Shown here: piece by piece, positions 11,127 through 33,773 of the stretch | Layout: each line of letters opens with the position of its first letter | Position numbering within the stretch: position 1 is the stretch's first letter | DNA from: an uncultured Actinomycetes bacterium | Lineage (GTDB): Bacteria; Actinomycetota; Acidimicrobiia; Acidimicrobiales; RAAP-2 | Reading direction: 5' to 3' | Assembly: GCA_903918025.1 (NCBI GenBank) | Contig: CAIXCS010000036.1 | Coordinates: forward strand, 1-51,416 | DNA length: 51,416 nt | Position numbers and translations under genes: made by a program | Notes under the pieces: model-generated | The model's input: only the letters and a program-made list of their open reading frames with translations | Database searches by the model: none | What the model was told of the DNA's origin: nothing

Positions 11127-11175
11127 CCCCGCTCCTTTCGTTAGCCCGTTCATCGGACTCACGAAAGGGGCGGGG
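11127..11175. terminator. Long imperfect hairpin between convergent genes (candidate bidirectional terminator)
   Basis: ccccgctcctttcg (11127-11140) pairs with cgaaaggggcgggg (11162-11175) at 13 of 14 positions, with a 21-nt loop. The right arm overlaps the last codons of the minus-strand small ORF. A smaller 7-bp hairpin lies at 11087-11105. Confidence 0.35.
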
Positions 11176-11398
11176 ATTCCTTCGAACGGGTGGCAGGTCC
11201 TTCGGTGTCAACGAGTGCGTCGTCGTCTTCAGCTTCGATTGATTTGTTCGTGAGCTCGATTGGAGTGGTCGGCGACGTCTCGAGTGGATCGAGGGTGTCG
11301 AGACTCCTCACGAGTTCACCGTGAGCCCGAAGGAGGTCAATCGCCAAGATCGCCAACAAGACCGTGGCAACAAAGAGTGCTCCAGCAACCGCGTCCAT
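11159..11398 (-). CDS. 79-aa single-TM protein, last gene of the mau-like operon
   Basis: It is hidden in the C-terminal part of track ORF 11159..11794(-). The ATG at 11398 lies 1 nt after the MauE-like stop. The sequence MDAVAGALFVATVLLAILAIDLLRAHGELVRSLDTLD... resembles the TM anchor plus following helix of the MauD-like protein at 14023-14781, but no thioredoxin domain follows. Confidence 0.45.
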   Translation of the reverse strand: MDAVAGALFVATVLLAILAIDLLRAHGELVRSLDTLDPLETSPTTPIELTNKSIEAEDDDALVDTEGPATRSKESPPLS

Positions 11399-11399
11399 G

Positions 11400-11903
11400 T
11401 CAGTCCATCCGACCTGGAGGATCGAGGACGAGAACGAAGAACCATGCGCCAAGAAGCACAACGGCGGAGAAGATGAGACCCAAGAAGAGGGACCGATGGA
11501 GAAGCGTCCCCAACGATGGACTTTCAAGCCCAAGGGCGATGGCACAGCCAATGGCCACCACGAGGTCAACCACAATCTGTCGGATCGACGGTGGTGACCC
11601 ATCTTGTCCAAAGCAGCCACATGAAGCGACCTCTGGCGAACGCCGGGCGGCAGCCAAGAAGATCGCGAAGGCAAGATACGAGAGGAGGACGAGCGACGTC
11701 GCCCAAGCAGAGCCCGTGGTAATGCTCCAGATACCGAGCACCGCTTCAAACCCTGCGCCAACGCGCACCAATGCGTTCGATGACGGCAGTCCAATGGCCT
11801 TCATCGCCGCAACTGCTGGACTCGGTTGGAACACCTTGAGCATTCCGGCGCCGATGAGCAGCACCGCCGCGACAACAGGAAAGACCATGAAGAACTCGCT
11901 CAC
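11400..11903 (-). CDS. MauE/DoxX-family redox-associated membrane protein
   Basis: It has four hydrophobic helices and the diagnostic SCGCFG motif after TM3 (AARRSPEVASCGCFGQDGSP), as in MauE (DCGCF). Its start abuts the upstream gene's stop. Confidence 0.7.
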   Translation of the reverse strand: MSEFFMVFPVVAAVLLIGAGMLKVFQPSPAVAAMKAIGLPSSNALVRVGAGFEAVLGIWSITTGSAWATSLVLLSYLAFAIFLAAARRSPEVASCGCFGQDGSPPSIRQIVVDLVVAIGCAIALGLESPSLGTLLHRSLFLGLIFSAVVLLGAWFFVLVLDPPGRMD

Positions 11904-13550
11904 CTAGGACTGCACCACGCCGGTCGGTGTTCCAGTGAGGACACCATGCTCAAAGTTGACATGGGTCACGCCAACACCATCGTTGATGGTCGTCGTCGTC
12001 GGAAGGCCCAAAGCTCCAGTTGGACCACCAGCAGTGAGATAGGCAGCGAGCAGTGGGCCGACGAGGCTGCATGCATGACCGAGCGAACTGTCGTAGATCC
12101 TTCCTTTGGTGCAGATCAACTCGGTATAGGGGGTTGCGCCTGCCACACCGGTCGTTGGCGAGGTAGTCGGCAGCCCTGCGGATCCGCCCAAACCTTGATC
12201 CATGAAGAACGCACGGGCGATGTCGGCGTGAAGAACAACAGTGGCATCGTACGAGGTGACAATGATGCCAAGTGAGTTTGGAACGATTCCGGAACCATTG
12301 ACCAAGGAGAATTGTTGGAACGAGCCAACGCCTCCAACCGCTGCCACTGCAGTGGCGACTGGATAGCCAACAGCGTTCACCCCTCCAGCTGAGGTCCAGG
12401 CGGTGAAGATGCTGGCGGTGACCGCCCAACCACCGGTGGCGCTACTCGTCACCACTGCAGCGGTCGCAAGAACGGTGCTGCCGCTGTACTTCGCGAATGG
12501 CGTGATGGTGCCAAAGCCATCCGAGCTCGCTGTCGTCGTGGCAGTCGGATACCCAATGCCGATCTCTGCTCCATTTGCGCTCCATGGAGCAATTGCGGCA
12601 CCAATCACGCCATGCACCCCAGCAACTGGATGCGCAACCACGATGGCGCTTGGCGTTGCGACACCATTCGAAACGGTGGCAAATCCTTGACGCCAACCCA
12701 CCTTGTCGACGACGGGATGCCCATCATCACTTGGATATCCCATCGATCCACTTGAAATCATGCCGGCAAAGTTCGTCCAAACCTTTGGCGGCACCGAGTG
12801 AACTCCGAGCCGCGGAATCTCAAAGATCGCTCCATTGGCATACTGCTGCCAGTGGCCTGACAAGGCGGTAATCGTCTGGAGCTTTCCAACCGGTGCGCCA
12901 AGAAGACCACCCTGACCTCCGAGATCTGACCACTTGTTGGTGATGGCACTGGGATTTGGCCCCGGCAGACACGGTGCAGAGTGGGTCACCGTCCGTTGAT
13001 CAGTAAACGAGGTCGTCAAACACTTCGGATCGAACTGCCAAGGTGGCGTGCAGGTGACGAGTCGGCAGACGACCGGGCTCTTGTGCACGTCAATCGCGAT
13101 GTCGGTGTGGCAATTTCCATATCGAAACTGCACGCACGAGACATGTCGCTTGTCACAGCTCGCGGTACTTGGGCAGTGGCAGTGCCACTCGGTTTGGGGC
13201 AGGCCATTGCAATCGACGTAGTACCGAGCCTTTCCACCGCAGAACGATGCCCGGTCAGCCTTCCACCAGCCAGCAATGAACGTTCCTGTCGGACAGAAGT
13301 TGGCCCCTGCATTGATCGTGCAGCAGAACGCGGTGTACCCATCGTGACAATTTGACGCTTGCCCGCAGATCGATTGGTAGGCGGTGCGGGGCTCGAGCGC
13401 GAATTCCTTCGGAGCGACCGCGACCGCTGAGCCGAAGAGGGCAGTGCGGACGAGGAAACTCCGCCGATTCCATACGGGGCCACCAAGCAGCCCGGCGAGA
13501 CGCTCAACGAGGGGCTTGGTTACGGATGACATGGTCGATGAGGTGCTCAT
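11904..13550 (-). CDS. Tat-exported Cys-rich (methylamine-dehydrogenase-light-chain-like) domain fused to LGFP repeats
   Basis: It has a twin-arginine signal (NRRSFLVRTALFGSAVAVAP). About 16 Cys lie within roughly 150 aa (CGQASNCHDGYTAFCCTINAGANFCPTGTFIAGWWKADRASFCGGKARYYVDCNG...). About six LGFP-like repeats follow (LLGAPVGK...ANGAIF; MGYPSDD; IGYPTAT; VGYPVAT; AGLPTTS; LGLPTTT). Confidence 0.6.
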   Translation of the reverse strand: MSTSSTMSSVTKPLVERLAGLLGGPVWNRRSFLVRTALFGSAVAVAPKEFALEPRTAYQSICGQASNCHDGYTAFCCTINAGANFCPTGTFIAGWWKADRASFCGGKARYYVDCNGLPQTEWHCHCPSTASCDKRHVSCVQFRYGNCHTDIAIDVHKSPVVCRLVTCTPPWQFDPKCLTTSFTDQRTVTHSAPCLPGPNPSAITNKWSDLGGQGGLLGAPVGKLQTITALSGHWQQYANGAIFEIPRLGVHSVPPKVWTNFAGMISSGSMGYPSDDGHPVVDKVGWRQGFATVSNGVATPSAIVVAHPVAGVHGVIGAAIAPWSANGAEIGIGYPTATTTASSDGFGTITPFAKYSGSTVLATAAVVTSSATGGWAVTASIFTAWTSAGGVNAVGYPVATAVAAVGGVGSFQQFSLVNGSGIVPNSLGIIVTSYDATVVLHADIARAFFMDQGLGGSAGLPTTSPTTGVAGATPYTELICTKGRIYDSSLGHACSLVGPLLAAYLTAGGPTGALGLPTTTTINDGVGVTHVNFEHGVLTGTPTGVVQS

Positions 13551-14026
13551 GCAATCACCCCCTCACGCGTCAACACAATCGATGGCAGGAGTGCGTTGAC
13601 CATTGGCACCTTTGTCGAGAGTGCAACCCTGCCTCCGAGGACCACGTAGAGGACAATTCCACGGCCTGCAACGGTGCAAAAGTGCTGAGACCCGAGTTGG
13701 CCGGGGAGCATTCGCTGAAGTTGACGGGCAGAAAATCCCGAACGAGCAAGCCGTCGAGGTAGCCCACTTTGAGCAAACAGGGTCGTGTTGGCGGCATCTG
13801 GACCAAAGTCCAAGACGGCAACGAAGACGTCATCAGGCCGCATGCGTTCAACTGCGCCACCGCCATAGTGCGCACGGACAGGCGGCAGTGGGAATGAAGC
13901 CAAGTGAAGATAGGGATGGTGCTGCTCTTCAACATGGTCGCCTGGTTGCGGCGCCATACGACTGATCCATGCCTCCCAACCTCGCGGGACGTCGACACTG
14001 ATCCCGAGTGCTCGGTGAATGGTCAT
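13547..14026 (-). CDS. Hypothetical 159-aa protein (no signal peptide or TM), embedded in the mau-like operon
   Basis: It has 4-nt start/stop overlaps with both neighbours. I recognise no motif. Confidence 0.5.
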   Translation of the reverse strand: MTIHRALGISVDVPRGWEAWISRMAPQPGDHVEEQHHPYLHLASFPLPPVRAHYGGGAVERMRPDDVFVAVLDFGPDAANTTLFAQSGLPRRLARSGFSARQLQRMLPGQLGSQHFCTVAGRGIVLYVVLGGRVALSTKVPMVNALLPSIVLTREGVIA

Positions 14027-14781
14027 GAAGGTTCCCCACGCAACGTCACTTCCGTCACCGGAGTTGGATAGAGCGATGGGTCACCGGGGAGAATCCCCGC
14101 ATTGAGGAGAAGTAGGTCAACCTCATTTTCTCGTTCACGATCGCTTCTCGGCTTCGCGAGATCGCGACCCACTCCAGCCGCAACCGTGCCGTCCCCACTC
14201 GAGGTTGCAACCAGCGCAAGAACCTGCGTCCACGTGAGCGCAGTTCCCTCGCCGACCACACGCCCAGTCGCACCCTCGACGTAGGCAAAATACGGAGATC
14301 CTGGCGTCGAAAATGCATCCCAGATCTCCGTTGACATGAGGACGTCAACATCGCTCGGCGCAAGATCCGCAATCGCTGCGGGACTTTCGTCGGTTGCGCC
14401 GCGAGTTACCACCACAAGTCGGAGGTACTCCGGAAGTAGCGGCAGTTTTGCTTCCCGCAAATCCGCCCAGAGCGATCCACAACTGGTGCAGCCGCTTGAG
14501 AGGAAGGCAACGAGGAGGTCATGATCGACTCCAGCTGACGGGAGAACCACCTCGTCTCCAAATGGTGTCTGTCCGACAAGCCGAGCAATAGTGACGCCGC
14601 TTTCACTGAGCCCACTCGCAGGTGAGAGAGCGAAAGCATCCGGACGGATGCTCTGTTGTGGAGCACGACCTTCTACTCTCCGCACTCGTTCGGCAAGTCC
14701 GGAGTAGCTGGCGAGGAGTCCTGCCACAAGAAACCCAAGACCAAGAAGCACGACGGCTTCAATGACCACAACGACCCTCAT
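14023..14781 (-). CDS. Membrane-anchored thioredoxin-fold protein (MauD/TlpA-like, CxxC)
   Basis: I chose the internal ATG at 14781 (MRVVVVIEAVVLLGLGFLVAGLL), which forms an ATGA overlap with the upstream stop at 14778. An N-terminal TM is followed by LLVAFLSSGCTSCGSLW (CxxC in a redoxin context). The track ORF extends to 14967 through an Arg-rich leader that overlaps the upstream gene. Confidence 0.65.
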   Translation of the reverse strand: MRVVVVIEAVVLLGLGFLVAGLLASYSGLAERVRRVEGRAPQQSIRPDAFALSPASGLSESGVTIARLVGQTPFGDEVVLPSAGVDHDLLVAFLSSGCTSCGSLWADLREAKLPLLPEYLRLVVVTRGATDESPAAIADLAPSDVDVLMSTEIWDAFSTPGSPYFAYVEGATGRVVGEGTALTWTQVLALVATSSGDGTVAAGVGRDLAKPRSDRERENEVDLLLLNAGILPGDPSLYPTPVTEVTLRGEPS

Positions 14782-15572
14782 GCGCGAACGAGGTCGTGGT
14801 CCTCGACCTTTCGTGACCGTCGAAGGTGCAGCATCGTGCCCGCTCCCACGACGAGGGCAGCGAGTGCGCCGACTAGTCCGAACACGGCACCAGCTCCAAC
14901 TATCAAGACGAGTGACTCCGCAGCGAGACAGCATTGTTCGCTTGCCTGCTCGTGGTCGTCGAGCCATGCATGGACGGCAAGCAATTGCGTTGGTGAGGTC
15001 ACTCGACTACTGAGCAAGATTCCAGCCCCTCGGGCGGTGCCAAACAAGAGGCAGAGCGCGAATGCCGCTATGGGTGAACCAGAGGAAACCGCGATCGCCA
15101 CGAGGAGGTAATTTGCGGCAGTCATCACATACGTCGTGAACCCAGCGCCGATCTGCCAACCAAATCCTGCTGCGTAGACAATGGGTCGATACCGGTCGAC
15201 CCATTGTTCATTTACCTGTCTCGGAATGACTGGGAGTCGAATGCCCCGAACATGACCATCGGTGAGAACTGCAACGAGTGCAACAAGTCCCGAGACCCAC
15301 AGCATGAACATTGTGCCCAACCCGAGCGCATGGACGACAACGGCACCAAGGGCACAGAGCGATCCAAGTGATGCTCCGCCGACGACACTCCCGAGCGTGA
15401 ACCACGTCGCGGTGACCGAAAAAGAGTGCCCGCGCAACTTCTCTGCGAGCGGCGTGATCGTCGAAAGCATTGAGAGTCCACACGGAGACCACATGCCACG
15501 AGCGGCGGCGACAAGCGCCAACACAATTGCTGCACCTCTGAGCATCGATACCTTCCGTAAGCAGCGAATCAA
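14778..15572 (-). CDS. Polytopic membrane protein, possibly a DsbD/CcdA-superfamily (MauF-like) thiol-disulfide transporter
   Basis: It has about 6 TM helices, a Cys in TM1 (GMWSPCGLSMLSTITP) and a central GFGWQIGAGFTTYVMT segment. It is the first gene of the coupled operon. The start could instead be M10 (15545). The family call is tentative. Confidence 0.4.
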   Translation of the reverse strand: MIRCLRKVSMLRGAAIVLALVAAARGMWSPCGLSMLSTITPLAEKLRGHSFSVTATWFTLGSVVGGASLGSLCALGAVVVHALGLGTMFMLWVSGLVALVAVLTDGHVRGIRLPVIPRQVNEQWVDRYRPIVYAAGFGWQIGAGFTTYVMTAANYLLVAIAVSSGSPIAAFALCLLFGTARGAGILLSSRVTSPTQLLAVHAWLDDHEQASEQCCLAAESLVLIVGAGAVFGLVGALAALVVGAGTMLHLRRSRKVEDHDLVRA

Positions 15573-15762: not shown

Positions 15763-17004
15763 ATGCGTCGCTCATTGAGCACAGGAGTTGCAGCGCTAAC
15801 CCTCTTCGGCATCACCGCAATCCCCTCGGTTGCCGGCGCGGCAAAGTCCATCAAGGCACCGCCAACCATTGTGGTGAAGGGCACTACCTTCGTGAAGGCG
15901 AACACGGCGACCAATGCGAGCTTCAAAGGAGCTGGTCCCTACCACGTCGGCATCACGACCTTCGATCTGGTCGTTCCACCGACGACCTTGACTCCCGCTG
16001 GCTACACAACCAAGGTCGACTGTTGGTATCCAACCTTGGCGATTGGCACGCCATCGATCTACAACATGTCGCAGTGGCTTCCTGCCCCCATTGCCTTCAT
16101 CGTCAATTCCAATCCTGCAGCCAAGACCATTGCTACCTATTCAACCGGTGGCATCGCCAAGGCACCGGTCGCTCCTGGAAAGTTCCCGCTCGTGCTCTTT
16201 AGTCACGGCTACGGCGGCTTCAGAGATCAGTCAGCCGCCATCACATCGCACCTCGCCGGATGGGGTTTTGCCGTGTGTGCACCCGATCACGTTGGTCGGG
16301 GCTTGACTGCCCAGCTCGACCCAACAGTAAGCCTCACTCCTCCAACAACTGATCCGAACGCGGACGTGAATGACCTCATCGCTCTTCGGACCTACCTCCT
16401 TGGTAATAACGTCGCACTCCTCAAGAACCATGTCGACACCACGCGAGTGATTGCTCTAGGCCACAGTGCCGGAGGCTCTGCTGCCGAGCGCCTCGCCTCG
16501 TATGCAACCTCGCTCGGGGCGAGCGGTTCGTGGCTCAAGGGTTGGATTGGGATGGCAGGCATGTCGAAGCTCGACTGGAGTCAAGCAATTGCCCCCTACA
16601 ACCAAGTTCCAACCCAACCTGGGTATGTCTTGTCCGGGTCAAATGACATGACCGTCCCAACGGCGACCCTGGTGACCGCGTTCGCCGGTCTTACTGCTCC
16701 GAGTCATATGACCGTGTTGAGCGATGCAGGGCACAATGTCTTCAGTGACATTTGTGTTATCGGTGCCGGTAGCGGGGGGATTCTTGCAATCGCCAAGGCG
16801 CTGAATGTGACCGTCCCGGACAACCTCGCTGCCTTGGCGACTGATGGCTGTAAGTCACCGAATCGACCAGTTCTCGACGATTTGGGAATCATTGGACAAC
16901 TCACGACCGCCGCATCAAGGGCATTCAATGGGCAGGACGTTGGCAAGGGAACCATGAGTGGACTCTCCGCTGCCTACCCTGGCCTCGTGGTGAGTTCCTC
17001 CTGA
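15763..17004 (+). CDS. Secreted alpha/beta hydrolase (PAF-acetylhydrolase / dienelactone-hydrolase-like lipase/esterase)
   Basis: It has a signal peptide (LTLFGITAIPSVAGAAKS), LVLFSHGYGGFRDQ, the nucleophile elbow GHSAGGS, and a late DAGHNVF segment (candidate catalytic His). Confidence 0.7.
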   Translation: MRRSLSTGVAALTLFGITAIPSVAGAAKSIKAPPTIVVKGTTFVKANTATNASFKGAGPYHVGITTFDLVVPPTTLTPAGYTTKVDCWYPTLAIGTPSIYNMSQWLPAPIAFIVNSNPAAKTIATYSTGGIAKAPVAPGKFPLVLFSHGYGGFRDQSAAITSHLAGWGFAVCAPDHVGRGLTAQLDPTVSLTPPTTDPNADVNDLIALRTYLLGNNVALLKNHVDTTRVIALGHSAGGSAAERLASYATSLGASGSWLKGWIGMAGMSKLDWSQAIAPYNQVPTQPGYVLSGSNDMTVPTATLVTAFAGLTAPSHMTVLSDAGHNVFSDICVIGAGSGGILAIAKALNVTVPDNLAALATDGCKSPNRPVLDDLGIIGQLTTAASRAFNGQDVGKGTMSGLSAAYPGLVVSSS

Positions 17005-17305
17005 GCCCCAGATGTTGGTGAACCAGAAGCCGAACGAGAGCTCCTTTTCTTGCGTTGATCAGGGGTCTCCGACGAATTCGCGAAGGACGCGCTTTCTGCA
17101 CGTTCGCTGAGTAAATCGGACGGTTGGGTTCAACAGGAGCGCTTTTGCCAGCCCGCGGAGCACAGATCCACATTCGTAGGTAACTTTGCAAGTGGGAATA
17201 ACCCAACATCGGCTGACGAAGTCGATGAAACGCCCGAGAACAAGGAACGCCATGCATGAGATTGACTGCTGGGACGCGCATCCAGTCGCGCCTCATGGCG
17301 GGTTC

Positions 17306-20300
17306 ATGGTTCCTGTGGTGAAGAGATGCATCGTCGCAGGTACGGCTCTTGCAACCATCGTCAGCGGGCTCACGGTCATTGGACCTACCCTCAACGCGGG
17401 TGCCACGGCGACTCCCGCACCAATCCTCACGCTCACCGCAGGCACTGGAGTGTCCGGGGTCCCAACTCCAGGGCCAGCTATCAGCTCAAAGTTGAGCAAT
17501 CCCCGTGGGATTGCGATTGATTCGCTGGGCAATCTCTACATCGCCGACACGGGTGACAGTGTGATTGAAAAGGTCACCCCAACGGGAGCGTTGTCGATTA
17601 TTGCGGGGACCGGCATCTCCGGCGTCCCAGTTCCAGGCCCAGCCGCCAATTCCCCGCTGGGCCACCCATCGGGAATGGCAGTAGATACCGCCGGCAATCT
17701 CTACATTGCCGACACGGGGTACAGCGCAATTGAAAAGATCACCCCTGACGGCGTGCTGTCGATTGTTGCTGGAACCGGCACAAGAGGCACAGAAATCTCA
17801 GGACCCGCGACGAGTTCGCCGTTGGGTGTTCCTACCGGTGTTGCGGTTGATACCTCGGGCAATCTCTACATTGCCGACTACCTCAATACCGTGGTTGAGA
17901 AGGTGACCCCCGATGGAGTCCTGTCAATTGCAGCCGGTAGTGGCAACTTCGGCATGCCATCGCCTGGGCCAGCCGTCAGTTCGCCGCTTGGCAACCCGAG
18001 AGGTGTCGCGCTCGATCCTTCGGGCAATCTCTACATTGCCGATTCTGGATATGGCGTCATCGAGAGAGTGACACAAGCAGGGGTGTTGTCCGTCGTCGCT
18101 GGAACTGGAATCAGGGGAACCCCAACTCCCGGGACTGCGACCAATTCAAAGTTGAACAACCCCTATGCCCTTACCGTCGATGGGGCAGGGAATCTCTACG
18201 TGGCCGACGCCGACAATCACGTGATCGTGAAAGTCACCTCGGGCGGCATGTTGTCGATTTTCGCCGGCACGGGTATCTACGGCACACCAACTCCGGGGAC
18301 CGCAACCGGTTCTAAGTTCGCGAGCCCAAATGGTGTGGCTCTTGATCCCTCGGGCAATCTCTTCATTGCCGACTACGACAGTGCAGTGGTTGCAGGAATC
18401 ACGCTCTCCGGAGTCTTGATCGCGAACCTCCCTCAATCAGGCGCAGTTGGCGGCTCCTTCCAACCATCCGTTGCCTCAACCGGTGACGGGACGACCACGG
18501 TGACGAGCGCCACTCCGGGGATTTGCTCAGTGGCGAGTTCGACGGTGAACTTCATCGCTGCCGGGACCTGTCGCCTCATCTCCCATGTCGCAACTGGCCC
18601 CAACTATTCGGGGGCCGACGGGGCAATCCAGTCCTTCACCGTCGCACGTGGAACACCGTCAGTCTTGCTCTCGATCATCGCTGGAACTGGCACTCAAGGC
18701 ACCACCGTTCCTGGACCTGCGACGAGCTCGATGCTTGGTGGACCGAATGGCGTCGCCGTCGATTCGTCAGGCAATCTCTACATAGCCGACTACTTCAACC
18801 ATGTCGTGCAGAAAGTTACTCCCACTGGGCTGCTCTCGATTGTTGTAGGGAACGGCACTCAGGGTGCCCCAACACCTGGTTCCGCAACAAGTTCAATGTT
18901 GAGCAATGCTCAAAGCGTCGCAGTCGACGCAGCCGGCAATCTCTACATTGCCGATTCCGACAATGCCGTTGTTGAGAAGGTGACTCCCAGCGGCATTCTC
19001 TCGATCGTTGCAGGAACCGGTGTCCCTGGAGCCCCGACCTCAGGAGACGCCACGCATTCGATGTTGCGCTACCCCGCGGATGTCGCCGTCGATTCGTCAG
19101 GCAACCTCTACATTGCCGACTACAGCAACTACGTCATTGAGAAGGTCACGCCCGCCGGGAACTTGTCGATCGTCGCAGGAACGGGAAACTATGGGACACC
19201 CTCGCCTGGATCTGCCACCAGTTCACGATTGAATGGTCCTTCAGGCGTTGCAGTTGACGCGACGGGCAACCTCTACATTGCCGACTCCGGCAATGCCCTC
19301 GTTGACAAGGTCGACCCTTCAGGTGCACTGTCGATAGTTGCAGGAAATGGAACGTCGGGCGCACCTACTCCAGGGGTCGGAATCGGGTCGATGTTGGGTT
19401 ATCCCGAAGGTCTCGCCGTTGACCCCTCTGGAAATCTCTACATAGCTGACTTCTTCAACCACGTGATCGAAAAGCTCTCCCCCGCGGGGATGTTGTCGAT
19501 CGTCGCAGGCACTGGGACTTCAGGTCCCCCGACACCAGGGCCAATTGGAAACTCAATGCTGAGTGGCCCCAACGGTCTTGCGGTTGACGCAACGGGCAAT
19601 CTCTACATTGCCGACTACGACAACGCGGTTGTTGAGAAAATCACCCCTGCCGTGTCAATCAGCAACCTTCCACACTCTGGCGCAGTTGGGGGGAGTTTCA
19701 CGCCGACCATCGCTACGACTGGTGACGGGGCGACCTCGGTCGTGAGTTCGACCAATGGCGTTTGCACGGTCTCGGGCTCCACGGTTACCTACGTTTCTGT
19801 TGGAACCTGCACCCTCATCGCACGAGTTGGTGTTGGCACGAACTACACGAACGCTGAGGGTTCAAACCAGTCGTTCACAATTTCGAGAGGCATGCCACCG
19901 ATGCTTCTCTCCGTCGTTGCTGGAACGGGCACTGCAGGAACGCCGGCTCCGGGACCCGCCACGAGTTCGAGATTGAGTAACCCAAGGGGTGTTGCAGTCG
20001 ACTCCTCGGGCAATCTCTATCTTGCCGATACGGGGTACAGCGTGATCGAGAAGGTCTCCCCAAGCGGCGTGCTGTCAATCGTTGCCGGAACGGGCACGCC
20101 CGGTGCACCGACGCCCGGGTTGGCTACCAGTTCAAAGTTGAACGTCCCAAATGGTGTCGCTGTCGACCCATCGGGCAATCTCTACATTGCTGACTCGGGA
20201 AATTCGCTGGTAGAGAAAGTTACCCAAGCAGGAGTGCTGTCCATCGTCGCTGGAACCGGAACGTCTGGCATACCAACCCCTGGGGCAGCCACCAGTTCGA

Positions 20301-21442
20301 GGCTCAACAGCCCGAGTGGTCTCGCTTTTGACGCATCGGGCAATCTCTACATTGCTGACTCAGATAACCACGTCATTGAGAAGGTCACACCAGGTGGGGT
20401 GCTGTCCATCGTCGCTGGAACCGGCGCGTATGGAACCCCAATTCCTGGAGTGGCAACAAGTTCGACGCTCTGTTTCCCCAATGGCATTGCAGTTGACGGA
20501 TCGGGCAATCTCTTCATTGCCGACGCCGATGCACATGTCATTGAGAAGGTCACGCCAGCCGGTGCACTCTCTATCGTCGCAGGTACCGGTTTGATTGGTG
20601 CACCGACATCCGGTCCGGCAACGAATTCGCGCTTGAGTGTCCCGAATGGTGTGGTCACGGACGCTCTGGGCAATCTCTATATCGCCGATGCCGACAATCA
20701 CGTGATCGAAAAAGTCACTCCCGGCGGAGTCATCTCCGTCGTCGTTGGAACAGGCAGTTACGGAGCGCCAACCCCTGGTATCGCCACCGCTTCAAAGTTG
20801 AGCTATCCCAATGGAATCGGCATGGACGCTGTGGGCAATCTCTTCATTGCCGACGCCGACGGCCATGTCATTGAGAAGGTCACCTCGATCGTGTTCATCT
20901 CCAACATGCCTCTTTCCGGTGTCGTTGGCGCTTCCTTTACCTCCACCCTTTCGACTACAGGGGACGGTCCGACTTCAGTGACGAGTTCCACACCTGGTGT
21001 GTGTACCGTTTCCGGATCGATCGTGAACTACATCGCTTCCGGCATCTGTCAGCTCACTTCGCACGTTGGACAGGGAACGAAGTACATGGGTGCAAACGGC
21101 ATGCAGCAATCCCTCCAGGTTCAGGGTTTTGCGATCATGCTGCCCTCGCTTCCGCGAGCCACTCGTGGCCGAAGTTTTGGGCCTATTCGGTTGCAATCAA
21201 CTGGAGTTGCCCCTTCAACGCCACTCAAGAGTGTCACGGTTTCGTGGACGCCGGTGGCAGTGCCGCTCGGGCTCAAACTCTCGTCTTCTGGAGTGCTCTC
21301 CGGTGTCGTGACCACCCACGTGGCACCCGGAAACCGTGCAGTCAAGGTGCGCGCCATCGAAACCATCAAGACTCGAGTTGGTGGAACATTCAAGGTGACC
21401 TCATTCGCCGTTCAAGCGACGTTTACCCTCACGATTCGATAG
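17306..21442 (+). CDS. Giant secreted NHL-repeat protein: three modules of 6 NHL blades plus an Ig-like domain, then a C-terminal Ig-like domain
   Basis: I chose the ATG at 17306 (MVPVVKRCIVAGTALATIVSGLTVIGPTLNAGA, a signal peptide) within track ORF 17186..21442. There are 18 copies of the NHL core G-N-L-Y/F-I/V/L-A-D...V-I/V-E/V/Q/D-K-V/I/L-T/S/D-P/Q/S-x-G. Every six blades are followed by LP-SGAVGGSF...TGDG-T-V-S-T-G-C-V-...G-C-L Ig-like inserts. Confidence 0.85.
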   Translation: MVPVVKRCIVAGTALATIVSGLTVIGPTLNAGATATPAPILTLTAGTGVSGVPTPGPAISSKLSNPRGIAIDSLGNLYIADTGDSVIEKVTPTGALSIIAGTGISGVPVPGPAANSPLGHPSGMAVDTAGNLYIADTGYSAIEKITPDGVLSIVAGTGTRGTEISGPATSSPLGVPTGVAVDTSGNLYIADYLNTVVEKVTPDGVLSIAAGSGNFGMPSPGPAVSSPLGNPRGVALDPSGNLYIADSGYGVIERVTQAGVLSVVAGTGIRGTPTPGTATNSKLNNPYALTVDGAGNLYVADADNHVIVKVTSGGMLSIFAGTGIYGTPTPGTATGSKFASPNGVALDPSGNLFIADYDSAVVAGITLSGVLIANLPQSGAVGGSFQPSVASTGDGTTTVTSATPGICSVASSTVNFIAAGTCRLISHVATGPNYSGADGAIQSFTVARGTPSVLLSIIAGTGTQGTTVPGPATSSMLGGPNGVAVDSSGNLYIADYFNHVVQKVTPTGLLSIVVGNGTQGAPTPGSATSSMLSNAQSVAVDAAGNLYIADSDNAVVEKVTPSGILSIVAGTGVPGAPTSGDATHSMLRYPADVAVDSSGNLYIADYSNYVIEKVTPAGNLSIVAGTGNYGTPSPGSATSSRLNGPSGVAVDATGNLYIADSGNALVDKVDPSGALSIVAGNGTSGAPTPGVGIGSMLGYPEGLAVDPSGNLYIADFFNHVIEKLSPAGMLSIVAGTGTSGPPTPGPIGNSMLSGPNGLAVDATGNLYIADYDNAVVEKITPAVSISNLPHSGAVGGSFTPTIATTGDGATSVVSSTNGVCTVSGSTVTYVSVGTCTLIARVGVGTNYTNAEGSNQSFTISRGMPPMLLSVVAGTGTAGTPAPGPATSSRLSNPRGVAVDSSGNLYLADTGYSVIEKVSPSGVLSIVAGTGTPGAPTPGLATSSKLNVPNGVAVDPSGNLYIADSGNSLVEKVTQAGVLSIVAGTGTSGIPTPGAATSSRLNSPSGLAFDASGNLYIADSDNHVIEKVTPGGVLSIVAGTGAYGTPIPGVATSSTLCFPNGIAVDGSGNLFIADADAHVIEKVTPAGALSIVAGTGLIGAPTSGPATNSRLSVPNGVVTDALGNLYIADADNHVIEKVTPGGVISVVVGTGSYGAPTPGIATASKLSYPNGIGMDAVGNLFIADADGHVIEKVTSIVFISNMPLSGVVGASFTSTLSTTGDGPTSVTSSTPGVCTVSGSIVNYIASGICQLTSHVGQGTKYMGANGMQQSLQVQGFAIMLPSLPRATRGRSFGPIRLQSTGVAPSTPLKSVTVSWTPVAVPLGLKLSSSGVLSGVVTTHVAPGNRAVKVRAIETIKTRVGGTFKVTSFAVQATFTLTIR
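17440..21125 (+). repeat. Coding tandem repeats: about 165-177-bp NHL units nested in a super-repeat of about 1.23 kb, present three times
   Basis: The near-identical 20-mer ggcaatctctacattgccga recurs about 18 times (for example near 17528, 17693, 17858, 18024). The Ig-like inserts begin at about 18428, 19658 and 20897, which is a spacing of about 1230 bp. Confidence 0.85.
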
Positions 21443-28300: not shown

Positions 28301-29593
28301 TGTTTAGGTTCACGACCTTGTTGATACCTGTGTCGCGTCATCGTTGATACTGGCATGACCCCCACGATGGGGAATGTCCAAGGCTCGAGTCATTGTGTTG
28401 TCGGTCGTGCACCAAGGTCTAACCAAGGCTGAAGTGGCCAAGAAGTACAACGTGTCGTGGCAGTGGGTCCATACGCTCGTGACTCGCTACAACGCCGGTG
28501 GCCTCGAGGCGGTTGAACCGAGAAGCTCTCGACCAGCGAGTAATCCTCGGCAACTCTCTCCCACTACGGCAGCAGCCATCATTTCGCTCCGCCACGAACT
28601 CGTTGCTCAAGGTTTAGATGCCGGGCCAATCACCATTGCCTGACACCTTGAGCGCCAAGGACAACACGTCCCCTCAGTGTCGAGCATTCGTCGGGTGCTC
28701 CTTGGAGCAGGCCTCGTCCCACCTGAACCGAAAAAGCGTCCGAAAGCATCGTTGCAACGATTCGAAGCCGACCAACCCAATGAGATGTGGCAATCAGACT
28801 TCACTCACTGGCATCTCGCAGATGACAGTGATGTGGAGATCATCAATTGGCTCGATGATCACTCCAGATTTCTCTTGGCCATGGTGGTGCATCGCAGGAT
28901 CACTGGTCGCATCGTGATCGAGACCTTCACCGATTGCGTCAATGCCTTTGGTCTTCCAGCGTCAACCCTGACGGACAATGGCGTCGTCTACACAACCCGC
29001 CTCATTGGAGGGCGAAACGGCTTTGAGCACTTGCTCGCCTCACTCGGAGTCATCCAGAAAAATGGACAACCGAGTCACCCGCAGACGCAGGGCAAAATCG
29101 AACGATTCCATCAAACACTCAAGAAATGGCTCACCGAACAGCCGTCTGCGGCCACCATTGAGCAACTCCAAGGACAACTCGATCGCTTTCGAGAGCTCTA
29201 CAACGAACACCGGCCCCACCGAGGAGCACATCGACAAACACCAGGCACTGCTTATCGAGCAACGCCAAAAGCAACTGCTCGTTCGCGAGGATCGATTCAC
29301 TATCGAGTTCGCTTTGACAACGTTGACCAATTCGGCAAAATGACCCTTCGCCATGCAGGAGTGCTTCGCCATCTTGGAATTGGCAATCAACACGCTGGAG
29401 CGAAGGCATTGCTCCTCATTGATGCAGCAATGGTGACGGTGACAGACCTGTCAACTGGCGAAATTCTCTCGCAGCATCACATCGACGAGAGCAAGAACTA
29501 CTGGCGCAATCAACTTCGACAGCCCGGCCGCTGGCCGAGGTGACTATCAACGGTGTCGCGACTCATCTATCAACGATGTCGCGACTCATCACA
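28301..29593 (+). mobile_element. IS481-family insertion sequence (1293 bp) inserted in the 3' end of tRNA-Arg
   Basis: The left IR is TGTTTAGGTTCACGACCTTGTTGATA (28301-28326). The complement of the right IR is TGTGATGAGTCGCGACATCGTTGATA (29568-29593). They match at 18 of 26 positions by my alignment. A single transposase frame lies inside, and the element is flanked by a perfect 15-bp direct repeat. Confidence 0.8.
28374..29543 (+). pseudogene. IS481-family DDE transposase (HTH plus rve integrase core) interrupted by one in-frame TGA
   Basis: Track ORFs 28374..28643 and 28677..29543 are in the same frame. The read-through sequence is ...GPITIA*HLERQGQHVPSVSSIRRVLLGAGLVPPEPKKRP.... The rve core is present (MWQSDFTHW..DD.SRF; TDNG..Y). 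The TGA at 28641-28643 replaces the Trp codon that the remnant copy retains. Confidence 0.8.
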
Positions 29594-29670
29594 TGGTGCG
29601 GGCGGAGGGATTCGAACCCCCAACCTTCTGATCCGTAGTCAGATGCTCTAATCCGTTGAGCTACGCCCGC
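29594..29670 (-). tRNA. tRNA-Arg (anticodon ACG), CCA encoded
   Basis: The reverse complement is GCGGGCGTAGCTCAACGGATTAGAGCATCTGACTACGGATCAGAAGGTTGGGGGTTCGAATCCCTCCGCCCGCACCA. It folds as a cloverleaf with anticodon stem TCTGA/TCAGA, loop CTACGGA, and T-loop TTCGAAT. Confidence 0.9.
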
Positions 29671-29754
29671 GAGGTGCTTCAGTGCCACCCGGAGGTGGCG
29701 GGTCACCACTCTAGCCTGCGAGAAAACAGATCCTCTCCAAGCCGGAACTTCGGC

Positions 29755-30267
29755 TCAGCGGTCCTTGCCAATCTGCTTCTCAAGGGCCGCCATCTCACGG
29801 ACTATTTGCGCGAGATGCTGCTCTTGGTGCTTGAGATGGGTGTCTTGTTCAACCAGATGAGCTTGGATCTTGATCGCTTGTTCCAGAATCGCCGCTGCGT
29901 CGTTATACGTGGCCTCAGCTCGAGCGTCTGCAGCATTGGCTTGGATGTTCTGTCCAACAATGATGATGGGAAGCAAGACCAACTGAAGAAATGAACTCGA
30001 GAGCCAGAACACGACCGTGACGAGGTTGTGGCTTGAGATGGCAGAGGGAAGTGCCACGAGGGCGATCATGGCGAAGAGATACGCTGCCCACATCGTGCCA
30101 ACAATGGTCGTGACCTTCAGCCCCAACTTCGCATTGAGGCGCGTGATGAAACTTGGGTGGTCAAGCTGCCGCTGATCGTTGACTCGAATTGGGCCAGCTG
30201 CGACTCGCGCTTCAAGATGTTCCTCGGGAGTTGGCCTCGGCTCTGTGGTCATGTCAAGAGTCTGCAC
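29755..30267 (-). CDS. DUF1003-family membrane protein
   Basis: Two TM helices (GTMWAAYLFAMIALVALP; VVFWLSSSFLQLVLLPIIIVGQN) are followed by a coiled C-terminus (QANAADARAEATYNDAAAILEQ...). This architecture is typical of DUF1003. Confidence 0.55.
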   Translation of the reverse strand: MQTLDMTTEPRPTPEEHLEARVAAGPIRVNDQRQLDHPSFITRLNAKLGLKVTTIVGTMWAAYLFAMIALVALPSAISSHNLVTVVFWLSSSFLQLVLLPIIIVGQNIQANAADARAEATYNDAAAILEQAIKIQAHLVEQDTHLKHQEQHLAQIVREMAALEKQIGKDR

Positions 30268-30420
30268 GGCTGGTCCCCTTCAATGGTGGAGTCATTTGGC
30301 TCTCAACCATTGACGTCGGTTAGGTTCAGCCTTAATCGGATGACGTTGTCCGGACGCAATGACCAGGGGGAACCGGAGGTTTGGCCATAACGGGCAAGCC
30401 ACGGGCTGGAAGGGGAGCAC

Positions 30421-31587
30421 ATGACGACCGCATTTGAATCGGCCAATCTCGGTCCACTCACAATCAAGAACCGCATTATCAAAGCAGCGACGTTTGAGGG
30501 TCGAGCACCGAAGGGTGACGTCACCCAAGATCTGATTGATTTCCACGTGCAGATGGCAGAAGGTGGCGTTGGTATGACGACCGTCGCCTACCTGGCGGTG
30601 GCTCCAGAAGGACGAACCGATCGCAATTGCGTCCTGCTTTCAGACGCCGACAACGTTGCCAAATTGCAGACGCTCACGAACGCAGTTCACGAAGCTGGAG
30701 CCAAGATTTCGGCTCAGGTTGGTCACGCTGGCCCGGTTGCGAACAGCCGGTCAAACCGGGTCCCGACCCTCTCACCTTCCGGAGGACGTTCGCCCCTCGG
30801 AATGGTCTCCCACGAAGCCACCGAAGCGGACCTCGACAGAATCTTGATCGCCTTTACTGAGTCGGCAAGAAATGCAGTTGACGCCGGATTCGATTGCATT
30901 GAGCTTCACCTAGGTCACGGGTATCTGTTGTCATCGTTCATGAGTCCGAAAGCCAACTCTCGAACCGATGCGTATGGAGGAAGTCTCGAAGCCCGATCGC
31001 TCTACCCGCGAAAAGTCGTGGAGGCCGTCAAAGAAGTCATTGGCAACCAGGTGGCGCTCACCGCCAAAATCTCTATGAGGGATGGAACGAAGGGTGGCAT
31101 TGAGCTCGAGGACTCCATTCCGACTGCGAAGCTCTTAGAGGCAGACGGCCACCTTGACGCCCTTGTCTTGACTGCCGGAAGTTCCCTCAATAATCCGATG
31201 TATCTCTTTCGCGGCAAGGCGCCCCGCAAGGAATTTGCCGCAACCCTCCCACAGCCCCTCAAACTCGGTTTCAAGATTGTCGGACGCCATTTCATGCCGG
31301 ACTACCCCTACGAAGAGGCGTACTTCTTACCAATGGCGAGTCAATTTCGAGAGGCCCTCACCATGCCGCTCGTCCTCCTCGGTGGTGTTGCCAACGCAGC
31401 AACCATTGAGCAGGGTCTCGATGCTGGCTTCGAGTTCGTTGCCATGGGACGCGCTCTGCTCGCAGAACCTGACCTGCTCCTTCGCTACGAGGCCGGAACC
31501 GCAACGACGTCGAAGTGCACGCACTGCAATCGCTGCATGCCCTCGATCTACACCGGCACTCGCTGCACGGAGTTTGTGACCGCTTAA
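30421..31587 (+). CDS. NADH:flavin oxidoreductase (Old Yellow Enzyme family)
   Basis: It contains LTIKNRIIKAATFEG, HAGP and ELHLGHGYLLSSFMSPKANSRTDAYGGSLEARS, a classic OYE TIM-barrel motif. Confidence 0.85.
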   Translation: MTTAFESANLGPLTIKNRIIKAATFEGRAPKGDVTQDLIDFHVQMAEGGVGMTTVAYLAVAPEGRTDRNCVLLSDADNVAKLQTLTNAVHEAGAKISAQVGHAGPVANSRSNRVPTLSPSGGRSPLGMVSHEATEADLDRILIAFTESARNAVDAGFDCIELHLGHGYLLSSFMSPKANSRTDAYGGSLEARSLYPRKVVEAVKEVIGNQVALTAKISMRDGTKGGIELEDSIPTAKLLEADGHLDALVLTAGSSLNNPMYLFRGKAPRKEFAATLPQPLKLGFKIVGRHFMPDYPYEEAYFLPMASQFREALTMPLVLLGGVANAATIEQGLDAGFEFVAMGRALLAEPDLLLRYEAGTATTSKCTHCNRCMPSIYTGTRCTEFVTA

Positions 31588-32390
31588 GCCATCTCGTCGG
31601 CGAACAGGTAATGGCCTCCAAGAATGCCGGCGATGTTGCCGACAACGGTGATTCTGTCGAGGCGCTTGCCAAAACCGTCACGTCGGACAGTTCGAGCATT
31701 GCCACCACCAATGTAGAGATGGTCGAAGTTCACGAGATCATCAAGAAGCTCGACGGCTCGATGAACGAGAAGCGTCCACTGGTCATCGCCAATTCGCTTG
31801 CGAGCACGGTTCCCGAGTTCTCCATCGAGCGTTCCACTTCGAAGAAGTGGCATCGATCCCATTTCCATGTGCGGCGTCGCCACGCCATCTCGATACAGCG
31901 CAAATCCAAACCCAGTGCCAAGGGTGATGACGACTTCGATGCCTCGTCGAGCAATGACGGCGAGACCCTGCATTTCGGCATCATTCACCACTCGAACTGG
32001 TCGACCAATGGACCGCTCAAGCGCAGCCTCGAGCGGGAAACCCCTCCATGCCTTTCGAAGAACCGGATCAGCTTTCTGGCCAAGTCCCATTGACGATTCA
32101 AAGTGCGGAGCCACGAGAATCTTTCCCTCACGCACGACCCCTGGAAAGCCAACGGCCATTCTCGAGGTCACCGGGAACTTGGCTGAAAACTGGGTCAGGA
32201 GATGGACCATGGAGTCAATGCCTTCGGGTGGCAGTGGATACGGCGTCGAAAACTTCAACCGTTTCGTTACCATCTGTCCCTGAGCATCGAGCACCGCTCC
32301 CTTAATGCCGGTCCCGCCAATGTCAATGGCGAGGGTCGAAGGTGGTTGAACGCTCACGGAGCGAAAGGGTAGTGCCCGCGCCGACAACAC
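31584..32390 (-). CDS. ppgK: ROK-family polyphosphate/ATP glucokinase
   Basis: It contains LAIDIGGTGIKGAVLD, GFPGVVREG, NDAEMQG and ITLGTGFG. Its 268-aa length is typical of actinobacterial PPGK. Confidence 0.7.
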   Translation of the reverse strand: MLSARALPFRSVSVQPPSTLAIDIGGTGIKGAVLDAQGQMVTKRLKFSTPYPLPPEGIDSMVHLLTQFSAKFPVTSRMAVGFPGVVREGKILVAPHFESSMGLGQKADPVLRKAWRGFPLEAALERSIGRPVRVVNDAEMQGLAVIARRGIEVVITLGTGFGFALYRDGVATPHMEMGSMPLLRSGTLDGELGNRARKRIGDDQWTLLVHRAVELLDDLVNFDHLYIGGGNARTVRRDGFGKRLDRITVVGNIAGILGGHYLFADEMA

Positions 32391-32414
32391 ACCTTCTCGA
32401 GATCGAGATCAGGC

Positions 32415-33773
32415 TCATTTCGCAGACTTCTTCCGCGTCATTCCGCCAAGACTCACCACGAAGGGACGTTCGGTGTCATAGAGCACGATTGCCTGTCCGC
32501 GCTCAAGGGCGACCAGTTGTTCACCTCGGAGACGAGGTCGCCGTTCGCGTTGCACATGGGTGGATACCTCGCCTTTCGCTCGAGTAGTTGAGCTGGTCTC
32601 CACCACTTCTTCGCCGCTCAAGTCACGGAACATCTGGACCGTCGTTGGATCAATGGTTCCCGCACACAGCACTCGGGCTCGATGGTTGAGCACGAGTGAC
32701 GTGCCAAGAGCTCCGTGGCGAGCCACAACCTGACCAATGTCTTGGAACACCGTCAGCAGCGTGATGCCTTGACCTACTCCCGTCGCGGCAAGTTGGGCAA
32801 GTGTTTCGAGACCGGCGAGTTGCGCCGCTTCGTCTTGAACGACCAGAAGTGGTTGGCGGAGGCGACCCCCTTCAGACGCCGCACGTCGCATTGCGTGATC
32901 GAGCGCTTCGTTTCGTATGGCGGTCAGCATTCCTCGCGAGCGATCTTGGTCCCTCAGGGGGGCGCAGAGATACAGGGTTCCTTTGGCTTCAAGGAGTTGA
33001 TCAAAATCGAGACGGCCGCCAATACCGGATCCTCCATCAATGAGCGATTCGACCACTACCTCAATTGTCGTCGTGATCGAACTCGACTGCCGGGGATCGC
33101 GATCAAGACTTCCGAGCACCACCCGATAGGCATCGTGTTCGGATGCTGCAAGGAGAATTGCCAATGGCTCACTGAGCTGCTGTTCACTAATCCATGAAAG
33201 GAGTTCAGCAAGCGTGGCATCTGACAGTGCGGCGGCGAGGAGCAGTGGAGCCAGCATTCTCGCGGCTGCTGCGAGCCAAAAGGCTTCGTCGCCACTCGGC
33301 ACCATGGCGCTTGACGCAGCGCAGAGATCCTTGGCAAGTCGACGAGCCTCGCTGAAGGTGCCAACAGACGCCATGGGATTCCAAGAAACCGTCGGGAAGG
33401 TGCTCGCCTTTCCTGGGTCAATCACTGCAACTGGACCTCGACGTGAGCGGTGTTCCACGGTCGCTCGGAGCACGTCATCTTTGACGCTCGAAACGAGGAC
33501 CGGTCCATCCCAGTTCTCAATTGCCGGAATGACGAGCCGAGTGGTTTTTCCCGATTGTGTGGGACCAACAATGACCACGCTGTGCCCCGCCTCAGCCGAG
33601 ACCCCTCGATGGTTTGCTCTCCCGAGCTTCACGCGGTTGGGACCTTCTCCAGTAAGTCGTCTCGGAATTGACGTTCGGCGCTCTCCCTCTCGACTTCTTG
33701 CTATTCGTCTTCCAAGCCGTTCAGGTGAAGAGAGCACCGCAACGAGAGCCAGACTCACCACGGCGATGATCAA
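32415..33773 (-). CDS. VirD4/TraG-like type IV coupling-protein ATPase
   Basis: It has an N-terminal TM, Walker A (IVGPTQSGKTTRLVIP) and Walker B (PLLVVQDEAAQL). A 4-nt overlap joins it to the upstream ATPase gene. Confidence 0.65.
   Translation of the reverse strand: MIIAVVSLALVAVLSSPERLGRRIARSREGERRTSIPRRLTGEGPNRVKLGRANHRGVSAEAGHSVVIVGPTQSGKTTRLVIPAIENWDGPVLVSSVKDDVLRATVEHRSRRGPVAVIDPGKASTFPTVSWNPMASVGTFSEARRLAKDLCAASSAMVPSGDEAFWLAAAARMLAPLLLAAALSDATLAELLSWISEQQLSEPLAILLAASEHDAYRVVLGSLDRDPRQSSSITTTIEVVVESLIDGGSGIGGRLDFDQLLEAKGTLYLCAPLRDQDRSRGMLTAIRNEALDHAMRRAASEGGRLRQPLLVVQDEAAQLAGLETLAQLAATGVGQGITLLTVFQDIGQVVARHGALGTSLVLNHRARVLCAGTIDPTTVQMFRDLSGEEVVETSSTTRAKGEVSTHVQRERRPRLRGEQLVALERGQAIVLYDTERPFVVSLGGMTRKKSAK

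Follow-up and report, generated by a model that had tools for sequence, protein, structure and literature searches.

A cysteine-rich protein with a twin-arginine leader and LGFP repeats is encoded with homologues of mauF, mauD, and mauE in a cassette conserved among Actinomycetota

The subject of this analysis is one gene, and the operon around it, in a 51,416-nucleotide stretch of DNA (the window) from an uncultured bacterium of the order Acidimicrobiales (GenBank assembly GCA_903918025.1, contig CAIXCS010000036.1). The gene, referred to here as the target, lies on the minus strand and encodes a protein of 548 amino acids (aa) in which a twin-arginine translocation (Tat) leader precedes a domain with 16 cysteines and a series of LGFP repeats. 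It is the fourth of five tightly coupled minus-strand genes. The junction sequences show ATGA overlaps between the MauF-like and MauD-like genes, between the MauD-like gene and a gene for a 159-aa protein, and between the latter and the target, and the GTG start codon of the MauE-like gene directly follows the target's stop codon; the five genes are thus translationally coupled from end to end. They are laid out as follows.

14778..15572, minus strand: gene 1, a MauF-like polytopic membrane protein of 264 aa, related to MauF by hhalign and carrying WSPCG (SPCG at 15477-15488)
14023..14781, minus strand: gene 2, a MauD-like membrane-anchored thioredoxin-fold protein of 252 aa with a CTSC motif (14479-14490), its length counted from the ATG at 14781, although the open reading frame (ORF) as listed extends to 14967
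13547..14026, minus strand: gene 3, a conserved 159-aa protein without a signal peptide
11904..13550, minus strand: gene 4, the target, 548 aa
13410..13550, minus strand: leader of the target (residues 1-47), with a long n-region, RRSFL (residues 29-33; 13452-13466), an h-region, and AVA
12960..13379, minus strand: Cys-rich domain of the target (residues 58-197), with 16 cysteines, invariant alignment columns, and an AlphaFold model
13260-13271, 13209-13223, and 13110-13127, minus strand: the motifs GWWK, YYVDC, and FRYGNC of that domain, respectively
11907..12938, minus strand: LGFP repeat region of the target (residues 205-548), six units of about 60 aa with G[YL]P periodicity, matching PF08310
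11400..11903, minus strand: gene 5, a MauE-like membrane protein of 167 aa, matching Pfam MauE and carrying CGCFG (11607-11621)
11159..11398, minus strand: a possible sixth gene, a 79-aa single-pass membrane ORF starting 1 nucleotide after the MauE stop codon

The target is a real gene and not a chance ORF, because a relative in public protein collections, also 548 aa long, is 64% identical to it over the full length, because 178 homologues of the N-terminal domain were found at E <= 1e-3, and because alignments of 47, 93, and 121 sequences contain many residues that are invariant or nearly so. These comprise almost every cysteine, G94-W95-W96, R109-Y110, D113-C114, F142-R143-Y144-G145, and R163, and the W95/W96 pair is the only invariant tryptophan site in the family. 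The three-part anatomy that the original prediction had proposed for this protein (a Tat signal, a domain of about 16 cysteines, and about six LGFP repeats) was borne out in each part. A 28-residue n-region, RRSFL, a hydrophobic stretch, and AVAVAP follow one another in the order of a twin-arginine leader, and one member of the Cys-rich family matches the Pfam TAT_signal model. Exactly 16 cysteines fall within residues 62-194, with two further ones at positions 480 and 494. PF08310 (LGFP) matches the whole protein at 59.7 bits against a cutoff of 22 (E 3.6e-16) and the repeat region scanned alone at 64 bits in six stretches, with G[YL]P units spaced 56 to 64 residues apart. The cysteine and tryptophan positions to which the prediction had drawn attention are likewise conserved, nearly all of the cysteines and the whole of G-W-W being invariant across 121 sequences. 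An AlphaFold model of residues 50-200, built from the 121-sequence alignment, has a mean predicted local distance difference test score (pLDDT) of 77.7 and a predicted template modeling score of 0.74, and it contains a three-stranded sheet; this run on the mature domain was used in place of an earlier one that included the leader and was too poor for use (pLDDT 57).

The neighboring genes were identified by comparison with the mau locus of Paracoccus, in which the gene order is mauF-B-E-D-A-C-J-G. The MauE-like protein matches Pfam MauE (PF07291) at 49.4 bits against a cutoff of 27 (E 7.4e-13), and its CGCFG (residues 95-99) has the form of the CXC-F-G active-site motif defined for MauE in a recent preprint (bioRxiv 10.64898/2026.03.05.709764). 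That preprint reports complementation of an E. coli dsbB mutant by MauE proteins through the CXC active site, and it argues that MauE is a DsbB-like oxidase acting through a thioredoxin-fold partner such as MauD. The MauF-like family aligns with Paracoccus MauF at an hhalign probability of 98.8% (E 5e-17) over 185 columns, with WSPCG common to both; Pfam DsbD_2 is matched by 4 of 14 MauF-like members (best E 4e-6), and Paracoccus MauF itself matched no curated Pfam or NCBIfam model. For the MauD-like family, the alignment with Paracoccus MauD reaches 92.6% (E 4.6e-7) over 167 columns, among them those of the membrane anchor, the CxxC motif, and the cis-Pro loop. The Paracoccus comparator is MauD by TIGR02661 (E 9e-110), a model that the window's protein does not match, having no NCBIfam match at E <= 0.01; since the homology is thus at the profile level only, we call the protein MauD-like and not MauD. 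Eight unrelated controls, mostly membrane proteins, scored no higher than 19.4 in the MauF-like comparison and 18.7 in the MauD-like comparison. The MauD-like protein also has a conserved tail (R-E-x-x-x-D-R-E-L-L-A-A-G-I-x-P-G-D-P-S-L-Y) beyond the 167 aligned columns, which end at residue 178 of the 199 of Paracoccus MauD. The 159-aa protein showed no similarity to any Pfam, NCBIfam, or PDB entry or to MauJ.

The target, flanked by homologues of mauF, mauD, and mauE, thus has the appearance of a client of maturation machinery like that of MauA. Other components of such pathways were not seen beside it: no MauB, MauG, cupredoxin, radical S-adenosylmethionine (radical-SAM) enzyme, or flavoprotein was found among the scanned genes of the window, and no window ORF longer than 150 aa has two or more CxxCH motifs. 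Promoter and terminator sites in the operon region were no more frequent than expected by chance. Directly downstream of the MauE-like gene, the 79-aa ORF has an anchor and juxtamembrane helix resembling those of the MauD-like protein; homologues of it stand beside MauE in three other loci (L004, L005, and L018), and it may be a sixth gene of the cassette in this clade.

The same set of genes recurs widely, the cassette being present in about 70 of 80 related loci. A pattern scan of species-representative genomes gave 574 confirmed stretches, and the best 80 of the 574 were fetched. All 80 are from Actinomycetota, among them Acidimicrobiia, Nitriliruptoria/Euzebya, Jatrophihabitans, Nakamurella, Mycobacteriales, Frankiaceae, and Pseudonocardiales; the Solirubrobacterales are represented among the protein matches, and one cultured strain with the client domain is Nakamurella leprariae YIM 132084. 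By hidden Markov model match, the target family is present in 80 of 84 loci, the 159-aa protein in 78, the MauD-like protein in 71, the MauE-like protein in 70, and the MauF-like protein in 62, all of which are lower bounds because many loci lie on truncated contigs. The cassette genes are almost always codirectional, most commonly in the orders MauE-MauD-small-client-MauF and MauE-MauD-MauF-small-client ("small" being the 159-aa protein). Any further gene family within about 7 kb on either side is found in at most 17 of the 84 loci, and none of MauB, MauG, cupredoxin/amicyanin, radical-SAM enzyme, or flavoprotein recurs at all.

What varies among relatives of the target is the C terminus. Most members of the Cys-rich family are stand-alone proteins of about 205 aa. 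Among 93 longer members, whose C-terminal fusions we tabulated as the original prediction had suggested, the attached modules are mostly wall-binding or lectin domains: LGFP in 32, CWB2 in 7, DUF4214 and FG-GAP in 4 each, B_lectin in 3, and ricin-type lectin and SLH in 2 each, with MauE itself in another 4. Because these modules vary, we take the Cys-rich domain to be the constant functional part of the family and the C terminus to be an interchangeable anchor for the wall, S-layer, or glycans. The LGFP repeats of the target would accordingly be expected to tether it to the wall, to judge from the annotation of that family and from the CWB2 and SLH modules that hold the same position in relatives. 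In at least three protein clusters, MauE and the Cys-rich domain occur in one chain. Three metagenome proteins of this kind (P0095, P0097, and P0106) have a complete MauE with CGCFG followed by a twin-arginine region and the Cys-rich domain, and they are either true fusions or gene-calling read-through.

The resemblance to MauA, the methylamine dehydrogenase (MADH) light chain, was examined separately for leader and mature domain. Aligned by hhalign as full precursors, the Cys-rich family and MauA (32 aligned comparators, all genuine MauA sequences with PF02975) gave a probability of 95.6% and a pairwise P of 1.1e-8 over 114 columns. This figure is not proof of homology, because most of it proved to stem from the leader once the alignment was split. 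The leaders alone scored 44.7 against a column-shuffle null of 9.1 ± 1.8, while the mature domains alone scored 21.7, with a probability of 5.8% and P 0.0065 over 53 columns.

The leader similarity nevertheless goes beyond the RR motif alone. On individual MauA leaders, the family's leader profile scored 27 to 35 in seven of eight cases and 17.7 in the other, compared with 11 to 20 on 14 classic Tat leaders, and the MauA-leader alignments begin 10 to 15 residues upstream of RR, whereas the classic leaders align only from RR onward. The Tat leader of TorA, on the other hand, scores 36 on the MauA leader profile, and part of the similarity could thus be generic Tat signal.

For the mature domain, the evidence is more divided. 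The original prediction held that the Cys-rich domain resembles the MauA light chain, with its WW pair at the place of a quinone-forming tryptophan. The register it proposed was recovered when mature domains were aligned by hhalign: the alignment runs C-x-DG...C...CPxGT...W...C...CxC and sets W95 of the target on W114 of the MauA precursor, which we take to be the quinone-bearing Trp57 of the mature chain. Its score of 21.7 was exceeded in none of 40 column shuffles, for which the null was 13.3 ± 2.5. The likeness itself stood only to the extent of this weak CPxGT...W...C register. Even at E <= 10, the N-terminal 212 aa matched neither PF02975 (Me-amine-dh_L) nor any other Pfam family, and they matched no NCBIfam model. 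No MADH chain in the PDB was found with the single sequence (phmmer) or with a 47-sequence family profile (hmmsearch). HMMER cross-searches between the family and MauA were not significant (best score 8.5 bits); the median was -0.9 bits for mature MauA sequences and -5.3 bits for shuffled ones, whose maximum lay above the real maximum. Structure comparison, which the prediction had named as a check, went against it: Foldseek of the model against 350,542 PDB chains returned no MADH light chain and a best E of 4.9, small domains poor in secondary structure being hard cases for this method. The region around the second tryptophan of the tryptophan tryptophylquinone (TTQ) cofactor, W165 of the MauA precursor, is unaligned, with no further invariant tryptophan in the Cys-rich family, and D70 of the target, aligned to MauA Asp32, is not conserved. 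The target is therefore not shown to be an amine dehydrogenase light chain, since it lacks a family-profile match, a fold match, a conserved second tryptophan, and, in the window and the 84 loci as covered, a heavy chain and MauG, although its leader type and its accessory genes are those expected of one; going by its alignment, it is possibly a very distant relative of MauA.

A straightforward response to these numbers is that the domain has no kinship with MauA and is a disulfide-rich fold of a generic kind, which uses the same widely distributed folding machinery and has come to resemble MauA through convergent Tat leaders and Cys-rich composition. The 5.8% mature-domain probability, HMMER scores that exceed those of shuffled sequences by no more than a few bits, the empty Foldseek search, and the TorA score would all fit, as would the description of MauE in the preprint as a generalist in many species that lack MauA (bioRxiv 10.64898/2026.03.05.709764). 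Yet it is three mau accessory genes, including MauF with its WSPCG, and not MauE alone that accompany the target; the leader profile separates seven of eight MauA leaders from the 14 generic ones, in alignments reaching upstream of RR; and the mature-domain alignment beats all 40 column shuffles in the same CPxGT...W...C register. On balance we regard an unrelated fold as rather unlikely.

The opposite response is that the N-terminal domain is a true quinoprotein module, in which W95 or W96 is oxidized or cross-linked (as in TTQ, as in cysteine tryptophylquinone [CTQ], or as a hydroxytryptophan), and that the protein is a redox enzyme of the wall that works without a heavy chain. The invariance of G-W-W and the placing of W95 on the quinone tryptophan of MauA are what suggests this, along with a YxDC that follows 16 residues after W95 in the target and 17 after W114 in MauA. 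The predicted hairpin can be read as placing the invariant Asp opposite the tryptophan, presumably as Asp76 of MADH sits opposite its own. The abundance of invariant polar and aromatic residues hints at an active site, and the MauF, MauE, and MauD homologues and the MauA-like leader would be in keeping with one of this type. Against it are the absence of any recurrent MauG-type diheme peroxidase, flavoprotein of the LodB/QhpG type, or radical-SAM enzyme near the cassette in the 84 loci; the lack of window ORFs over 150 aa with two or more CxxCH motifs; the missing second tryptophan and the unconserved D70; the failure to find amicyanin, a cytochrome partner, or a heavy chain in the scanned window genes or the 84 loci; and the want of any Pfam, HMMER, or Foldseek link to light chains. 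Nothing we examined supports a Trp-derived cofactor beyond the invariant WW pair and its alignment to the quinone tryptophan, and we judge such a cofactor improbable, as we do the quinoprotein explanation as a whole; a tryptophylquinone in the target is unlikely. Equally improbable, in our estimate, is the fuller version in which the G-W-W/Y-x-D-C hairpin carries a MauG-independent tryptophan modification (a hydroxytryptophan or a quinone with a Cys-Trp or Trp-Trp cross-link), the family is the source or sister of the MADH light chain, and its MauF partner is an unrecognized selenoprotein.

That last element has evidence of its own. In the window, the motif reads WSPCGLSML, and its Cys codon is TGT (within 15477-15488, minus strand). 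An in-frame TGA, and never TAA or TAG, replaces this codon in 31 of 61 loci, giving WSP*GESML (for example, at L010:4863-4919, L017:5768-5824, and L001:9366-9422). The first transmembrane helix is conserved in frame upstream of the TGA, and in at least one locus the gene call begins after it (the L001 gene starts at MLASI). Two hairpins follow the TGA codon. The first, AUGCU-N4-AGCAU at +13 to +26, is present in 31 of 31 TGA sequences, with all six stem positions paired in 25 of them. The second and stronger one, at about +25 to +52, has some 7 bp and a mean minimum free energy of -12.4 kcal/mol, with GGUC (11 sequences), GGU (7), or GGG (5) as its apical loop; the Cys forms, serving as controls, average -5.6 kcal/mol and have unrelated loops. 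A G-rich or GGUC apical loop at such a distance is the look of bacterial selenocysteine insertion sequence (SECIS) elements. In the other cassette genes, TGA was absent from the MauD-like CxxC, the MauE CXC, and the conserved cysteines of the client; a TAG in the MauE of L008 is a single case and looks like noise. Together, the TGA codons and SECIS-like hairpins imply that the residue at WSPCG, which probably alternates between selenocysteine (Sec) and Cys among loci, is redox active, and they suggest that the MauF-like family with TGA is an undescribed membrane selenoprotein. The Sec forms matched no model in NCBIfam release 20, to which they would add a family; neither MauF nor methylamine comes up in a review of prokaryotic selenoproteins from 2026, and our literature search found no description of a MauF selenoprotein.

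Taken with the operon structure, these observations lead us to favor, with some confidence, the explanation that the target is a wall-tethered, Tat-exported, disulfide-stabilized module matured by a dedicated thiol-redox system of the MauFED type. The Cys-rich domain (about 140 aa) would be a compact module held by up to eight disulfides, exported by Tat and then tethered to the actinobacterial wall by its six LGFP repeats, and the four cotranscribed genes would serve it as their dedicated client. The MauE-like protein, through its CGC, could act as a DsbB-type quinone-linked thiol oxidase and supply the oxidizing power; the MauD-like protein, through CTSC, may deliver or reshuffle disulfides as a carrier or isomerase on the outer side of the membrane. 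The MauF-like protein, a member of the CcdA/DsbD_2 superfamily, might provide a second redox arm, probably reductive or proofreading, by way of its single WSPCG Cys or Sec. For the 159-aa protein, a role as chaperone on the unusually long conserved leader or as a coexported partner can be envisaged. The logic would be the same as in the making and export of the light chain in the MADH pathway, with a different client. Our guess for the task of the domain at the wall is that its invariant aromatic residues bind a ligand or carbohydrate.

Several points weigh against this explanation. The hhalign, HMMER, and Foldseek results above do not establish that the mature domain and MauA are homologous, and, to judge from the TorA score, part of the leader similarity could be generic. 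The disulfide state of the domain is an inference, and Tat export is paradoxical for a protein whose disulfides form outside the cell, a puzzle that holds for MauA as well. The reductive role of the MauF-like protein is a guess, because it has one conserved Cys/Sec where CcdA and DsbD have two. The invariant GWWK, RYYxDCN, FRYGQC, D184, and H190 imply a specific active or binding site that the explanation does not cover. Finally, the search for MauG and MauB spanned about 7 kb on either side of each locus and the 51-kb window.

Alternatively, one could suppose that the cysteines bind metal (a Cu(I) or Zn thiolate cluster or Fe-S) that is loaded in the cytoplasm before export of the folded protein, as in copper storage proteins. 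Tat targeting of a Cys-rich domain is typical of cofactor-loaded proteins, Paracoccus MauE weakly matches the NCBIfam family for HvfX, which serves in maturation of a Cu-binding ribosomally synthesized and posttranslationally modified peptide (RiPP) (E 0.0033), and the 159-aa protein of the cytoplasm might serve as a chaperone for the loading. The fixed partners, however, all belong to thiol-disulfide chemistry (an oxidase with CXC, a thioredoxin fold with CxxC, and a membrane protein with Cys/Sec), ferredoxin-type CxxCxxCxxxCP spacing is absent, and the model predicts a small, irregularly looped beta-sheet and not a helical bundle. Metal binding would therefore seem very improbable, and maturation by thiol-redox partners remains the explanation that we prefer.

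The cassette is a MauFED-type maturation system in which the client is new and presumably wall anchored and one component is additional, and its likeness to the mau cluster extends to both client and helpers. Both clients have a long twin-arginine leader with a conserved n-region and a small Cys-rich mature domain with a weakly matching CPxGT...W...C core, and beside both stand MauE, MauD, and MauF homologues, with mauE before mauD. The differences are as clear. MauA has 12 cysteines and the Cys-rich family 16, with neither PF02975 nor a fold match; the second conserved tryptophan, MauB, MauG, amicyanin, and MauJ/M/N were not found for the cassette, which has in turn the additional conserved 159-aa protein; and the new client carries C-terminal wall-binding modules. 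The mau comparator comes from Paracoccus, whereas every match to the Cys-rich family with a named taxon is from Actinomycetota. Compared with the DsbB/DsbA and DsbD/DsbC pathways, the cassette likewise unites a CXC thiol oxidase and a thioredoxin-fold partner with a CcdA/DsbD_2-type membrane protein, but it ties them in one operon to a single client and not to the whole secretome, and its DsbD-like member has one conserved Cys/Sec.

Small Cys-rich proteins with partners of other kinds offer further points of comparison. QhpC, the gamma subunit of quinohemoprotein amine dehydrogenase, is a small Cys-rich protein with the Trp-derived cofactor CTQ and thioether cross-links, and it matures only with the help of a radical-SAM enzyme, a protease, and a flavoprotein; none of these three recurs near the cassette in the 84 loci. 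Candidate RiPP clusters of Streptomyces flagged by decRiPPter have mauE and mauD beside precursors with at least 8 cysteines (PMC7794033). They share with the cassette a mauE or mauD homologue next to a Cys-rich precursor, an actinobacterial host, and the absence of the rest of the mau cluster, but their predicted precursors are short and uncharacterized, while the domain described here is a conserved one of about 140 aa with large C-terminal modules. The target has in common with LGFP envelope proteins (PF08310), such as corynebacterial PS1, its six C-terminal repeats and presumed wall attachment; it differs in that its N-terminal passenger is a Cys-rich domain and not a mycolyltransferase or hydrolase, and in that relatives have CWB2, SLH, lectin, or FG-GAP modules in place of LGFP or none at all. 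The MauE preprint treats MauE as a generalist and, in the sections consulted, does not mention the Cys-rich client family (bioRxiv 10.64898/2026.03.05.709764), and our literature search found no description of that family.

These comparisons bear on how the mau helpers are viewed. For some 30 years, to our knowledge, MauF, MauD, and MauE have been known only as genes needed for the MADH light chain, and we know of no function for MauF. With no MADH near the fetched loci, all three helper genes would gain a second and much more widespread client, and MauFED, if the preferred explanation is true, would be a portable, client-dedicated folding unit for disulfide-knotted proteins. The exchange of Cys for Sec at WSPCG would point directly to redox catalysis by MauF through a thiol or selenol. 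The client domain itself appears to be a conserved wall-displayed module in Acidimicrobiia, Nitriliruptoria, and several Actinomycetes orders, part of a widespread and uncharacterized actinobacterial system.

Several other features of the window lie outside the cassette. Divergent from it, at 15763-17004 (plus strand), is a gene for a secreted alpha/beta hydrolase with matches to platelet-activating factor acetylhydrolase, chlorophyllase, and PETase-like proteins, which is not conserved beside the cassette elsewhere. Two genes from the cassette, on the opposite strand, a 1,418-aa protein (17186-21442, plus strand) consists almost entirely of NHL/SBBP beta-propeller repeats (NHL E 5e-88); it is not a conserved neighbor either. 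A search of the whole window against Rfam returned two tRNAs only. One tRNA gene (29597-29670) is adjoined by a gene for an rve-type integrase (28677-29543), and nearby lie genes for a coupling protein of the VirD4/TraG type (32415-33773) and for a P-loop protein resembling TraG (33770-34996). We read the region from 28677 to 37636 as a probable integrated conjugative element with no relation to the cassette.

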